Source of the DNA: Candidatus Magasanikbacteria bacterium RIFCSPHIGHO2_02_FULL_48_18
GTDB lineage: Bacteria; Patescibacteriota; Patescibacteriia; Magasanikbacterales; UBA922
Assembly (NCBI GenBank): GCA_001784285.1
Contig: MFQC01000008.1
Location: forward strand, 90,599-154,598
Length of the DNA stretch: 64,000 nt
Reading direction: 5' to 3'
Shown here: in pieces, positions 57,154 through 61,840 of the stretch
Layout: each line of letters begins with the position of its first letter
Position numbering within the stretch: position 1 is the first letter of the stretch
The notes under the pieces: generated by a model
Told to the model about the DNA's origin: nothing
The model's input: the letters and a program-made list of their open reading frames with translations, nothing else
Database searches by the model: none
Made by a program: the position numbers and the translations under genes

Positions 57154-58875
57154 TTATTGCCGCCAATAATACTCTATCATTTGGATAGTAAAGTTTTTGT
57201 CTTTGGCTTGTGGTATCAGTTCTTCGAGTTCAGAGCGCAGAATGGTTTCGTATAATTTGGATTTTGAAAAGTGAGCCCACTGGAAAGAGCCTGTGTAGTC
57301 GGTGAGAATTATTTTTCCTCCGCCATCTGGGAAATGATCTATCCAAACATGGTCCAATCTCACCTTCTTTTTCTTTAAGGTTTCATCTATTGCCTCTTTG
57401 AGGGCTTCGCCGGCGATGTCGGAAGACGCATTTTTTTGAAGTTCACGCAGTTCTTTTTTCATAGACTCGCTCAATTTTATTTCCTGTTCAAACATTTCTT
57501 CCGTATCGCCGAGGCTATCTTTAATCGTGTTTGTGCGGAAACGCCTTCCAGAATTTCCGACTGGTATTGCCGATTCATTTTTTACCAATCTTTGCCAATT
57601 GGCCACATTCGCTTTCACTTTTCCCGACCATATTTTCGTGCCGCTCGTCCCAAGAGCAGTGCGCAATTTTTTGGCTGCTTCTTTTGGATTCAGTTTTTTT
57701 AACTCTTCAATTTCATTGAGCTGTTTCATCAAATCAGCTTTTGCTTTTCGCATAGCGGCCATGTCCTGTTCTGCTTGTTTGATAATTTGTTCCAGATGCA
57801 ATGATTTTTCCGTTTTTTTAGCAAGAGCGAGCGAGCGCTCTATCTTTGCCTCGGCTTGCGCGAAGTGCTCCGTGAATTTTTCTATCCCTTTTTTGCTTGC
57901 CTTTACGCCGCCGCCTGCAACCGGAACAAAATCCAAAACCGTCATTATGGAATGCCCGAGAAAGCCGCTTAAGCCGCCGATTCGTGTCAGCGTATCCGCG
58001 GATGGATCCAAAAAAATCTCCAAATTCGCATTGGCTTCGGTGATGTTTTCTCTCGGATTTGGAATAAAAAAATTGAGGCTGTTGGACATTTTGGCTATGA
58101 TCAAAGAGGCAACTGGATTGATTGTTATTGTCATACGCTTGCTTCCCGTATTCTCTAAATCTTTGAATTTATTGAGAATCCAAGATTCTCCGATAGAAGA
58201 GGGGTCTTCAAAAGTTTTTCTGACTATAGCAAACGGGGCGAAGATGGATACTGTTGTGGCCTCTTCTTTAGTAAGAGTGTGTGCATTTCCAGTGGGATGA
58301 CCGTCGGCATCTTTGAGAGTGACGAGAGGTATTTTGCCGTCTTGACTGGTTCTGAGCCAGTTTGTGTGCGCGCTGTCGTCAAAAATTGAAATTTTGGTTT
58401 TACCATCGTCATCAGTCCATTGGACAAGGGAAAACCAATACGACGCGCCTAAAAAAAATTCAATAGTCGGCAGTATATCACCCCAATCCACCAATACAGC
58501 GGAGTATATACATGGAAGTTTTTCTAAGCGAACAGCAAAAACAATCCCAGCCGCTTGCAAGTCGCTGGGCAATTTTTCGTCGAGTTCAGCCATTTCGGAA
58601 AAAAAATTTGGCCGACGGGAAAATGTCTCGGTTTTAATAGCTTCTGTCAATGCCTCTAGGCCGGTCTCATCCTGGTTTATCTCTTCGTCACGCAGTAGAT
58701 ACGCTTCAAACTTTACCACATTCCATTCTTCGGCGATGTTATATATGCTTGCGTGAAATTTATTTGGTTCGGCAATAGAATAATTTATTTTGAAAGTTAC
58801 CTTGTATTCATCATCACCGTCATATGCCAGTTCTCCGCTCATGTTTAATGCTGAACGTTTATTTTTTTCTGACAT
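57154..58875 (-). CDS. Hypothetical cytoplasmic protein (573 aa): N-terminal globular domain, Gly-rich segment, central ~120-aa coiled coil and a C-terminal domain containing HVWIDHFPDGGGK
   Basis: Long uninterrupted ORF with no signal peptide or TM segment. Heptad-like K/E/A-rich stretch (residues ~320-450). No known family recognised. Confidence 0.6.
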   Translation of the reverse strand: MSEKNKRSALNMSGELAYDGDDEYKVTFKINYSIAEPNKFHASIYNIAEEWNVVKFEAYLLRDEEINQDETGLEALTEAIKTETFSRRPNFFSEMAELDEKLPSDLQAAGIVFAVRLEKLPCIYSAVLVDWGDILPTIEFFLGASYWFSLVQWTDDDGKTKISIFDDSAHTNWLRTSQDGKIPLVTLKDADGHPTGNAHTLTKEEATTVSIFAPFAIVRKTFEDPSSIGESWILNKFKDLENTGSKRMTITINPVASLIIAKMSNSLNFFIPNPRENITEANANLEIFLDPSADTLTRIGGLSGFLGHSIMTVLDFVPVAGGGVKASKKGIEKFTEHFAQAEAKIERSLALAKKTEKSLHLEQIIKQAEQDMAAMRKAKADLMKQLNEIEELKKLNPKEAAKKLRTALGTSGTKIWSGKVKANVANWQRLVKNESAIPVGNSGRRFRTNTIKDSLGDTEEMFEQEIKLSESMKKELRELQKNASSDIAGEALKEAIDETLKKKKVRLDHVWIDHFPDGGGKIILTDYTGSFQWAHFSKSKLYETILRSELEELIPQAKDKNFTIQMIEYYWRQ

Positions 58876-58880
58876 AGACG

Positions 58881-59486: not shown

Positions 59487-59518
59487 ATAGTATAGTATAG
59501 CACAAAGACTATTGTTCT

Positions 59519-61840
59519 CTATTCAACCGACCGCCAATATATCCCGCCGCCGCGAGTGCCTACGTACAAGATGTTGTTTTCAGTATCAAGTTCAAGGGAA
59601 AAAGCTCCTGCATGATTCAGACCTTCATTAAAAGGCTGCCACGTTGCTCCGCCATCACTACTTACATAAACGCCATGGTCGCCAACCAAGCCTCTAGAAG
59701 TAACTAGCCGAAAATAGTCAACTGTCGCGGCGTATACAACATTGCTTTTTTTTGGGTTTACCACAATGTCACCAACTCCATAATTTTTGGGTAGTTGCGG
59801 TATCTCGAGTTTCTCCCACAAAGCTCCGCCATCATTGCTCTTATACATTCCATCATCGTCTGTGCCTAGATAAAGTATATTTGGATCATTGGGGTCTAAA
59901 GCGATAGTATTCGTCTCTCTTGTTTCCAGCCCTGCATTTATTTTTTTCCAGCTACTTCCATAGTCTGTGCTCTTAAACACACCTGACCCGTTGCCGGTTT
60001 TCTCTGAAAAGTTTGTGGACCCTTGTGTGGTCACGTAGACGGTAGAGGGATTATTCTTATCGACAATAATTTTGCTCACATGCACATCGGTTTCAAAACC
60101 CGCATTCGCCTCCTTCCAACTTTTGCCGCCGTCTTCACTGATTGATATTCCGACGCCGCTCGGTGAATACTGGTCTCCACCGCCTCCAATATACATGCGG
60201 TCCGGGTTTGAAGGATCAAAAGCAATGCCATGGAAATGCGCGATTCCGGGAAGCAAACCGGAATCTTTAAAAAACGCTTCGGCGGCGCGCTCCCAAGTCA
60301 GCCCGCCGTCAAGACTGGCATATACTCCGCCGTTGGTTGTAATAAACACGGTTTGGGGGTCTGTTGGGTGCGTTGCAATAAGCATGACGTAGGGGTTTTC
60401 TAAATTGTAGGAGGAAAATGTCCAGCTCTGTCCTTGATCCGTGCTTTTGAACATGCCGAGTGAATATGTGCCGGCGTAAAGCGCGCCGTCCGCGGCTTTT
60501 ACAATATCCACCACTTCGCTTCCTATAAAACCATTATTTCTTTCGTGCCAATGCTGGCCCGCATCCTCTGTGTGGAAAAGGCCTTGTCTGCCGGCAATGA
60601 ATACTTCATCGCTATCCTCGCCTGTTGCCAATCTTTCTATGCCAGAATTCGAGATGAACGGCTGGTCGTGAGTGAAGAAAAAATTTTTCCATGTTTTTCC
60701 GCCATCTTCTGTTTTAAAAATTTTTCTGGAGAAAATGGCATACGCAATATCCGGATTATTGTCGTCTATAAAAATGCCTCCTTCCGAGGGGTCAAAATAC
60801 GATGCCGGAAGCTGTTGCCAGGTTTCACCCACATCAGCGCTTTTGTACACGCCGGCGCACTTCTCTTTTTCTCGTTTGGTAGCCTTTGGGTCTTCTTTGC
60901 CGGCTACCTCAAAACAAGTGAAGTCTTCATACACGCCGACTCTTGCGTAGATTTCATTCGGACGTTGAGGATGTATGGTAAGGTCCAATATATCCGTTCT
61001 ATGAAACGTTTGGTCAACTCTTCGCCAATTGCGCCCTTGGTCTTCGCTTTTGAACAATGCCGAATTCGTGCCGGAAAATACAATGTTCTCAAGAGTAGGA
61101 TGAGGTTCAATGACTTTTATCCAATTTTTTGATTCTTCTGGAATGCCTGCCCAGACAGGTTCCACGCTCCACTCGGTTTCTGGCAAAAATGATGCCCTCG
61201 TCCAATTTTTCCCATCATCAGACGATACAAAAAGCGTTCCTTTTCCCTCCGAAACAGCGCCCACAAAAATAAGAGATGGGTTTGCCTTGCTCATGGCAAC
61301 CGACGTATACGAATCGGCTTCAAGCTCAATTTTCTGCCAGGTTGTGCCTCCATTCCATGTAATAAAAGGTGTATCGGCGATAAAGGCAATATTGTTCGTG
61401 TTATTTGGGTCCACCGCAACATCGAGCACGCGCTTATTGGTGCCTCCCAGCGCTTTCCATGCTAAACCCTTGTTTGTGACCTCAAAAATGCCATTGCCCC
61501 CAAGTTCGTATGTAAACGATGTCGCCGCCCACAACGTATCGCCCACTTTTTCCAAATCAGTTATCAGGCCGCCGTATGGGCCGTTTACTTGGGTCCATCT
61601 ATCGACGCTGATTTTGGTTTGCGGACAATCTTGAACACAACGTGCGCTATTTTCTCCAATCTCGCATGCGGCGTTTCCGCATGTTCTTGCGGCAAGGTAG
61701 TCGGCGAGGGGCTTCGGAAGTTTTTCTGTCTCTTTTTCTTCATTCTGTACTTCGGAAGAAGAAATATTTTTATAAACAAAAAAAATTCCTGGGCCCAAAA
61801 CGATTAGAATGATGAAAGCGATTGAAATTTTTGTTTTCAT
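59519..61840 (-). CDS. Membrane-anchored BNR/Asp-box repeat beta-propeller protein (sialidase/sortilin/Ycf48-like fold)
   Basis: N-terminal TM anchor, a small Cys-rich segment (CGNAACEIGENSARCVQDC), then at least 12 Asp-box repeats S-x-D-x-G-x-T/S-W (for example SSDDGKNWTRA, TEDGGKTWKNF, STDQGQSWTF, SLDGGLTWERA, SSDGGATWQPF). Confidence 0.8.
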   Translation of the reverse strand: MKTKISIAFIILIVLGPGIFFVYKNISSSEVQNEEKETEKLPKPLADYLAARTCGNAACEIGENSARCVQDCPQTKISVDRWTQVNGPYGGLITDLEKVGDTLWAATSFTYELGGNGIFEVTNKGLAWKALGGTNKRVLDVAVDPNNTNNIAFIADTPFITWNGGTTWQKIELEADSYTSVAMSKANPSLIFVGAVSEGKGTLFVSSDDGKNWTRASFLPETEWSVEPVWAGIPEESKNWIKVIEPHPTLENIVFSGTNSALFKSEDQGRNWRRVDQTFHRTDILDLTIHPQRPNEIYARVGVYEDFTCFEVAGKEDPKATKREKEKCAGVYKSADVGETWQQLPASYFDPSEGGIFIDDNNPDIAYAIFSRKIFKTEDGGKTWKNFFFTHDQPFISNSGIERLATGEDSDEVFIAGRQGLFHTEDAGQHWHERNNGFIGSEVVDIVKAADGALYAGTYSLGMFKSTDQGQSWTFSSYNLENPYVMLIATHPTDPQTVFITTNGGVYASLDGGLTWERAAEAFFKDSGLLPGIAHFHGIAFDPSNPDRMYIGGGGDQYSPSGVGISISEDGGKSWKEANAGFETDVHVSKIIVDKNNPSTVYVTTQGSTNFSEKTGNGSGVFKSTDYGSSWKKINAGLETRETNTIALDPNDPNILYLGTDDDGMYKSNDGGALWEKLEIPQLPKNYGVGDIVVNPKKSNVVYAATVDYFRLVTSRGLVGDHGVYVSSDGGATWQPFNEGLNHAGAFSLELDTENNILYVGTRGGGIYWRSVE

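Follow-up and report, generated by a model that had tools for sequence, protein, structure and literature searches.

The stretch of DNA analyzed here, called the window, comprises 64,000 nucleotides (nt) from a groundwater bacterium of the Candidatus Magasanikbacteria, a member of the candidate phyla radiation (CPR) or Patescibacteria, and all positions given are those of the window unless a locus is named. Three minus-strand genes encoding proteins of 773, 201 and 573 amino acids (aa) lie there between a transporter gene and a tRNA-Leu gene. We consider it about an even call that the 573-aa protein is a modular effector resembling the polymorphic toxins, assisted by an accessory partner encoded directly upstream, toxicity and export being predicted properties. 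Its family is described by no curated library. This reading is in keeping with the constant front part and exchangeable C-termini, with the module that RHS toxins share, with the orphan cassette, with a distribution that is mobile and patchy, and with the recent insertion.

The 573-aa effector-candidate gene was located at 57154-58875, the 201-aa orphan gene at 58881-59486 and the gene for a BNR/Sortilin-Vps10-type propeller of 773 aa at 59519-61840. All three are co-directional open reading frames (ORFs) on the minus strand, as an earlier note on this DNA had described. The gap of 5 nt which that note gave between the 201 stop and the 573 start was correct, and the gap between the BNR and 201 genes was measured as 32 nt instead of 33 nt. 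An AI-2E-family transporter gene (PF01594; 56079-57140, plus strand) is convergent with the 573 gene, the two stop codons being 13 nt apart. On the other side, the BNR ATG lies 24 nt from the end of a gene for tRNA-Leu (anticodon UAA), which was found with ARAGORN and Rfam at 61865-61949 on the minus strand. The block was approximately 100% identical in 11 assemblies of the source species that came from different samples.

When the 573-aa protein was compared with Pfam, NCBIfam, PADLOC, PHROGs and the sequences of the Protein Data Bank (PDB), nothing significant was found, and the 201-aa protein had no family or PDB match in the same collections. With PADLOC-DB 2.0, none of the three proteins of the block matched a family at E<=1. 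Neither the 201-aa nor the 573-aa protein has an N-terminal hydrophobic segment. Their description in the earlier note as proteins without recognizable domains held, and neither was placed in a housekeeping family. Profile searches against the PDB with the N-terminal and central part, with the C-terminal domain and with a tail-associated subgroup of relatives also gave nothing significant.

The 573-aa protein begins with a beta-rich N-terminal domain (residues 1-195; 58291-58875, minus strand), for which an AlphaFold 2 (AF2) model built with the family alignment predicted strands at residues 13-166 with pLDDT values of 55-80. No family or fold match was obtained for this domain, and no tube-like or spike-like match appeared in the fold searches. 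It is followed by a helical central module (residues 196-330; 57886-58290, minus strand), the hallmark of the family, which was aligned in 14 of 14 relatives, contains an invariant P272 and was modeled as helices at residues 203-316 with pLDDT up to 85. This module includes a 60-residue motif shared with RHS proteins (residues 268-327; 57895-58074, minus strand) that was recognized by hhalign and BLASTP. A long helical, K/R-rich, coiled-coil-like linker (residues 331-443; 57547-57885, minus strand) leads to the exchangeable C-terminal domain (residues 444-573; 57154-57546, minus strand), a candidate enzymatic warhead delimited by the relatives and by a free-standing fragment from Terracidiphilus. 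Around residue 300 the AF2 model also showed a hydrophobic, Gly-rich stretch, and it had long helices at residues 323-432; its mean pLDDT was 58.7, with 31-65 in the C-terminal region, and the single-sequence AlphaFold model (pLDDT 34) was unusable. The tripartite architecture proposed earlier was thus broadly right, except that the conserved C-terminal module starts near residue 444 and not at residue 505.

Word-indexed protein searches recovered only the protein's own cluster, even when the family profile was used. By phmmer over 1.84 billion representative proteins (E<=1e-3), 19 hits were obtained, consisting of the own cluster, four noise matches to repeat proteins through a biased stretch, and 14 true relatives. 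P0011, P0012 and P0013 (E 2.5e-29 to 4e-17) aligned almost end to end, C-terminal domain included. End-to-end identity of the 573-aa protein with its relatives was 20-24%, with the invariant C-terminal residues among the matching positions. The phmmer alignments of all 14 relatives spanned residues ~196-400, four of them covering almost the whole protein, and residues ~196-330 were common to every one of them; part of the N-terminal domain was common only to the four nearest relatives (P0011-P0013 and P0026), whose alignments reached back to residues 88-136. The GC content of the relatives' contigs ranged from 0.33 to 0.68, which means that the family is scattered across very different organisms. 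Signal-peptide-like starts were seen by sequence reading in P0026, P0022 and P0023.

An all-against-all BLAST of the regions behind the module took in the window protein, its 14 relatives and the Terracidiphilus fragment at locus L018, 16 sequences in all. The regions separated into about eight classes that were unrelated by BLAST. The window protein grouped with P0011-P0013 and the L018 fragment. Another class was formed by P0014, P0017 and P0021, another by P0015 and P0018, and a further one by P0023 and P0025; P0020, P0022, P0026 and P0027 each stood alone. The lone cross-link between classes was weak (8e-4) and joined the class of the window protein to that of P0014, P0017 and P0021 through a helical part. 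A shared module followed by variable C-termini bears out the conflict-protein-type modularity that had been suggested for the 573-aa protein. No support was found for the accompanying idea of a filament-forming or sensor protein, and the evidence favors an effector that resembles polymorphic toxins. The isolated C-terminal parts of the relatives had no match in Pfam at E<=10, and NCBIfam returned nothing for the relatives. On reading the sequences, P0014, P0017 and P0021 seemed to have a nucleotidyltransferase-like G-S...D-x-D pattern, P0015 and P0018 an HNH-like tail and P0022 a PD-(D/E)xK-like "RLD...DLK"; these unverified impressions had no Pfam match at this threshold and were set aside.

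Residues 268-327 follow the motif lPdP..n..EA....i.lDP....leR.GG..G.lG.....vlDfvP. When the stand-alone version of this module (alignment A4) was compared by hhalign with the RHS-attached version (A6), the two matched at 99.4% (E 6.6e-22, 42% identity over 60 columns), and BLASTP of the window protein against the RHS protein P0022 gave 2e-13. P0022 is an RHS-repeat protein of 1,908 aa (RHS_repeat 8e-65) in which the module starts right after "...NPWTKFDPEGL", the boundary of the RHS core. P0023 and P0025 begin with a remnant of the same DPxGL boundary (NPW.KFDPEGL) and continue with the module, so three relatives are derived from RHS proteins. The C-terminal end of P0025 is Ntox8 (6e-15), a curated polymorphic-toxin domain and the only curated toxin domain among the relatives. 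P0027 runs on into Hint/PT-HINT, with weak matches (E 2e-5 to 2e-4) below the Pfam cutoffs. The second helix of the motif is Gly-rich, and in 7 of 11 relatives no other 19-mer of the protein was as hydrophobic. None of the curated pre-toxin families in the Pfam and NCBIfam copies searched, PT-TG included, matched the 60-residue module, and no RHS_repeat match was found in the 573-aa protein.

The C-terminal domain is common only to the window protein, P0011-P0013 and the free-standing fragment. Among the four full-length members, whose overall identity in this domain was ~27-30%, the kept residues were D508, D513, H514, D526, T528-G-S530, H535, K538, Y542, E568 and W571-R572. The kept polar residues suggest an active site and hence an enzyme. 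The free-standing version was found in a metagenome-assembled genome of Terracidiphilus (Acidobacteriota), where a 141-aa fragment corresponds to residues 444-573 (L018, 1149-2008); it was the only relative in the reference-genome scan. In this fragment D513 is replaced by Glu, the upstream frame is full of stops and a transposase-like ORF adjoins. As the fragment begins there, the start of the C-terminal module was placed near residue 444. No stand-alone cassette was found in the window. The reference-genome scan, which used patterns exact for the window protein, missed the source species itself, whose representative is apparently absent, a different assembly or a genome that does not carry the block.

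The surroundings of the relatives were also inspected. Ten of these loci contain the upstream flank, and nine of the ten have a called gene 4-41 nt upstream of the family gene. In the tenth, L042, 285 nt separate the family gene from a fragment at the contig end. In L043 the contig breaks off close to the start of the family gene, leaving the upstream flank outside. The upstream partners of P0011 and P0013 are homologous (E 3e-50), as are the 50-aa partners of P0014 and P0017 (1e-8). Between subfamilies the partners are unrelated, and none resembles the 201-aa protein of the window. Even alongside the same class of C-terminal domain they differ, with 201 aa in the window, ~500 aa in L013 and L015 and 300 aa in L014. 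No co-directional downstream gene was conserved among the relatives' loci. In L013 a Transposase_mut gene lies directly downstream of the P0011 family gene. No adjacency to a tRNA was found in the relatives' loci, and a "GFEPAT" reading frame in L014 proved to be a false lead.

The genes for P0014, P0017 and P0021 border a contractile-tail cluster that encodes baseplate proteins (a wedge match at 4e-53, hub, gp25 and gpV). The proteins of this cluster were 67-91% identical between contigs, whereas the family proteins were 33-38% identical to one another; fast divergence of an effector beside conserved tail genes is the usual pattern of fast-evolving cargo. On L040 (6410-14388; also on L016 and L039) the cluster comprises Baseplate_J/wedge, gp25, gpV, hub, DUF4815 and DUF6046 genes that are convergent to P0021, and it may belong to a prophage, a tailocin or an extracellular contractile injection system (eCIS). 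Upstream of P0021 there are genes for an OmpA-like protein and for a PG_binding_1 protein without a signal peptide, as well as an 88-aa ORF.

Among 5.8 billion sequences the 201-aa protein matched only its own cluster. It showed no similarity to the 573-aa protein or to the upstream partners of the relatives. The earlier note had asked whether the 201 and 573 genes occur together in other genomes; with no detectable homolog of the 201-aa protein, the pair is not syntenic outside the species, and in the strict sense this is a finding which the note itself had taken to count against its proposal. In one assembly (L011), all differences fall in an A-rich stretch of 41 nt in the 201 ORF (58976-59016, minus strand; L011 1269-1313). 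They consist of five substitutions and a 4-nt insertion, which shift the frame of the last ~40 codons and give a product of 176 aa (P0006); this may be a real variant or an artefact of assembly.

With a gap of 5 nt, the 201 gene is probably translationally coupled to the 573 gene. No Shine-Dalgarno sequence or other ribosome-binding site was evident before either gene, and a scan of the region for promoters and terminators gave sites at chance level only. The 32-nt spacer between the BNR and 201 genes contains a promoter-like TAGAGA-16-TATACT (59494-59521, minus strand) whose -10 element has the extended TG (TGnTATACT) and ends 7 nt before the 201 ATG. The pair could have a leaderless transcript, promoter-like sites being present here at chance frequency.

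The 201-aa protein would be a lineage-specific accessory partner, and a chaperone or adaptor is likelier than an immunity protein, because immunity genes sit downstream in polymorphic-toxin loci. An immunity or antitoxin role is the main alternative for it. Its upstream position is that of Eag and Lap-type chaperones. Eag/DUF1795 proteins from type VI secretion systems (T6SS) pair with effectors bearing transmembrane (TM) segments, and LXG toxins of the type VII secretion system (T7SS) pair with Lap targeting factors. The latter are mentioned in PMC13622651. As in those pairs from contact-dependent secretion systems, a small gene here lies tightly upstream of a large effector gene whose product has a hydrophobic helix and a variable C-terminus. 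In contrast to them, the 201-aa protein matches neither DUF1795, Lap nor any other family, and the block showed no genes of a T6SS or T7SS.

As a test for an island, related metagenome loci were fetched with the flanking AI-2E transporter gene as the anchor. Eleven sister loci from at least seven lineages, with transporters 51-66% identical, reached beyond the 3' end of the gene. In all 11, tRNA-Leu(UAA) was present on the strand opposite the transporter, the orientation found in the window, at a distance of 53-780 nt, compared with 4,724 nt here. This slot is filled in the window by exactly the three genes of the block and nothing else, and tblastn of the three genes against the 11 sister loci gave no match. 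In the sisters (L019-L030 and L038) the slot was empty in three loci (53-70 nt), held a gene for a MscL-like protein of ~140 aa in seven and held a gene for a DoxX-like membrane protein in L030, these identities having been assigned by sequence reading. The slot between the transporter and tRNA-Leu is shown by this to be a variable hotspot in the clade. Since it measures 53-780 nt in the sisters and 4,724 nt here, with the block filling it exactly, the block is a lineage-specific insertion beside tRNA-Leu (57141-61864, to which no strand is assigned), bordered by the 3' end of the tRNA gene, and the whole 4.7 kb was acquired in the source lineage. The suspicion of an island at a tRNA border was therefore justified, the block being absent from 11 of 11 sister loci that span the junction.

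The third-position GC content (GC3) of the 573 gene (0.425) and the 201 gene (0.421) was the lowest among the 36 window ORFs compared, whose mean was 0.52, and the 201 gene had the lowest value in the window. The BNR gene was also below the mean; it deviated less, and its composition and codon usage were nearer to those of the genome than the pair's were. Like known tRNA-associated genomic islands, the block lies directly beside a tRNA 3' end, is absent from sister lineages whose slot holds other small cargo, and has a mildly deviant base composition. It differs from them in its size of only 4.7 kb and in having no integrase gene, duplicated tRNA 3' end or flanking repeats: the block holds only the three genes, and no att-like, terminal or flanking repeats and no duplicated tRNA 3' end were found within 56900-62200.

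A hydrophobic anchor (Kyte-Doolittle 2.56) stands at the N-terminus of the 773-aa protein, which also contains 12 Asp-box-like motifs, nine of them following strict S.D.G..W. The protein matched Sortilin-Vps10 (6.6e-50) and BNR (1.4e-14) of Pfam and F510_1955 of NCBIfam (5e-57), and its PDB matches were BNR glycosidase, GH74-like and Ycf48 propellers. By these sequence features the protein is assigned as a membrane-anchored double beta-propeller of the BNR/Sortilin-Vps10 type; the TM-anchored 12-blade-like Asp-box propeller described in the earlier note was thereby recovered. A BNR gene was absent from all 12 loci of 573-aa relatives that were examined. A coherent three-gene system is therefore not supported, as the BNR gene accompanies no relative of the 573-aa protein. 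Propellers of this kind are common as stand-alone surface proteins, and here the BNR propeller would be a separate surface protein occupying the same insertion slot.

As a mechanism for the 573-aa protein, the N-terminal domain (1-195) would serve delivery, anchoring or the binding of a partner, and the Gly-rich hydrophobic helix of the module would mediate interaction with a membrane or translocation across it. The long helical part (331-443) would act as a spacer, and the C-terminal domain (444-573), with its invariant Asp, His, Thr-Gly-Ser, Lys, Glu and Arg, would be the enzyme. No immunity gene would be needed for an effector aimed at distantly related organisms. Patescibacteria are known in general for a host-dependent lifestyle, knowledge that comes from the group and not from the source organism, and the missing immunity gene would fit such a lifestyle of the source bacterium. 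Similar effectors that are aimed at distantly related organisms and come without immunity genes were described by Zhang et al. 2012 (PMC3482391), where polymorphic toxins are defined by conserved N-terminal and central parts, variable C-termini and stand-alone cassettes.

Several observations weigh against this reading. No immunity gene follows downstream, where a convergent transporter gene is reached after 13 nt, and no secretion apparatus was seen in the block. The 573-aa protein has no signal peptide or other N-terminal hydrophobic segment and no known trafficking domain; PADLOC and PHROGs are silent on it, and residues 444-573 matched no recognized toxin, nuclease or enzyme family in Pfam, NCBIfam or the PDB. 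Fold searches with the AF2 model, whose mean pLDDT was 58.7, were uninformative. The family is rare, so that the polymorphism rests on few sequences (14 relatives), and neither the 2.9 million viral contigs of IMG/VR nor INPHARED phages nor PLSDB plasmids yielded a relative. For the 201-aa protein there is no homolog from which a role could be read by comparison. All copies of the block within the species are ~100% identical, which made it impossible to measure dN/dS or selection.

Compared with the RHS-type polymorphic toxins (PMC3482391), the 573 family is likewise multi-domain, with a conserved N-terminal and central part and exchangeable C-termini, and it likewise includes a free-standing C-terminal cassette beside a mobile-element gene (L018). 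In some RHS proteins, among them one with a terminal Ntox8, the toxin fragment at the C-terminus opens with a homologous 60-residue module. However, the 573-aa protein has none of the RHS/YD repeats that make up the shell of RHS toxins and lead to its PxxxxDPxGL boundary, no recognized secretion or trafficking domain and no recognized toxin fold, no immunity gene follows it here, and the shared module is not PT-TG or another curated pre-toxin domain. Because an immunity gene, an export signal and a recognized toxin fold are missing, the protein was not filed as a classical polymorphic toxin; it is set apart from those systems, and that it works like one is probable only to the extent of a roughly balanced judgment. 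A likeness to the payloads of eCIS of the PVC type can also be seen, since the subfamily of P0014, P0017 and P0021 borders a group of baseplate genes (Baseplate_J, gp25, gpV, hub) and diverges faster than the structural genes. In contrast to such payloads, the family genes are convergent to the cluster and not in the same operon, the block in the window has no tail genes, no relatives occur on viral contigs or in phage records, and the N-terminal domain has no tube-like or spike-like fold match.

The pair might instead act inside the cell, with the 573-aa protein as a cytoplasmic effector turned on its own producer after phage attack or stress and the 201-aa protein as its antitoxin, inhibitor or sensor. 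Neither protein has a signal peptide, an upstream inhibitor with a downstream toxin after a 5-nt gap is the order generally known from type II toxin-antitoxin operons, no immunity gene lies downstream, and the block is a small acquired island. Defence proteins, too, typically combine a constant N-terminal part with variable C-terminal effectors. We nevertheless regard this explanation as rather unlikely: PADLOC is silent on all three proteins, the hallmark module recurs in RHS toxins, weapons that are exported, the N-termini of some relatives resemble signal peptides, and one subfamily lies beside a contractile-tail cluster. Unrelated upstream partners across subfamilies that have the same C-terminal domain are, moreover, not expected of a cognate antitoxin. 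The 573-aa protein could also be a non-toxic structural or envelope-associated protein, for example a remnant or an accessory component of a phage-tail-like particle, in which the coiled coil and the hydrophobic helix serve assembly or anchoring and the C-terminal domain is a binding module. Such a protein is unlikely here, given that the block has no tail genes, that the 573-aa protein has no PHROG match and that no relatives were found on 2.9 million viral contigs or in INPHARED. The invariant Asp, His, Lys, Glu and Arg are more typical of catalysis than of binding, and in P0025 a genuine toxin domain stands behind the same module.

A true three-component system, for example a surface sensor formed by the BNR protein with two cytoplasmic effectors, would agree with co-directional, tightly spaced genes within one inserted segment and with a GC3 below the window mean in all three. 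It is very unlikely in view of the absence of the BNR gene from 12 of 12 relatives' loci, the composition and codon usage of the BNR gene, which are nearer to the genome than the pair's, and the frequency of such propellers as stand-alone surface proteins; the promoter-like TGnTATACT between the BNR and 201 genes points the same way, although such sites occur at chance frequency. Finally, the pair could be decaying or functionless acquired DNA whose ORFs were kept by chance in one species, as might be thought from a 201-aa ORF that has no homolog and is frameshifted in its 3' part in one assembly, and from two genes with no evident ribosome-binding site. This we hold to be extremely improbable, because the 573 ORF is unbroken and can be aligned over its whole length with relatives (20-24% identity, invariant C-terminal residues included), 11 assemblies from different samples share an identical block, and long intact ORFs are unlikely to arise by chance in DNA of 42% GC.

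If the 573-aa protein is a polymorphic-toxin-like effector, it would add to the polymorphic-toxin toolkit an uncurated hydrophobic module of 60 residues, a candidate translocation element, together with a small uncurated C-terminal domain with clear candidate catalytic residues. It would also be a concrete candidate, amenable to cloning, for the means by which an ultra-small cell of the CPR/Patescibacteria could attack other cells or manipulate them; no described Patescibacterial toxin was found in the literature searched. A bolder version, which we offer tentatively and consider possible but doubtful, is that the family forms a previously unrecognized class of stand-alone polymorphic effectors composed of a new beta-rich N-terminal delivery domain, a new pre-toxin module for membrane translocation that some RHS toxins also have, and a new, small enzymatic warhead. 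Such a class would have spread horizontally across phyla, and the CPR copy with its private chaperone would serve as a weapon against a host or competitors through an export route new to these organisms, with no immunity protein. Should the polymorphic-toxin-like reading be wrong, what is left is a lineage-specific orphan gene pair beside a common surface propeller.

Other features of the window were noted. Directly upstream of the AI-2E transporter gene, six tandem genes for ABC-2-type membrane proteins (PF06182) are followed by one ABC ATPase gene (50200-56074, plus strand), an unusual sixfold array. Upstream of tRNA-Leu, a MacB/FtsX-type ABC exporter cluster occupies 62122-64000 on the minus strand, with a HlyD/YknX-like adaptor seen in L002; this cluster was not syntenic in the sister loci. 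A surface protein of 1,241 aa with five Lamin-tail domains and PKD is encoded at 11426-15151 on the minus strand. At 29837-32455 on the plus strand, a gene for an 872-aa protein with 13 Cys-rich "Dicty_CTDC" repeats (1.6e-74) is a compositional outlier, with a GC content of 0.634 and a GC3 of 0.785 against window means of 0.477 and 0.52, and the long opposite-strand ORFs that overlap it are probably artefacts of high GC.

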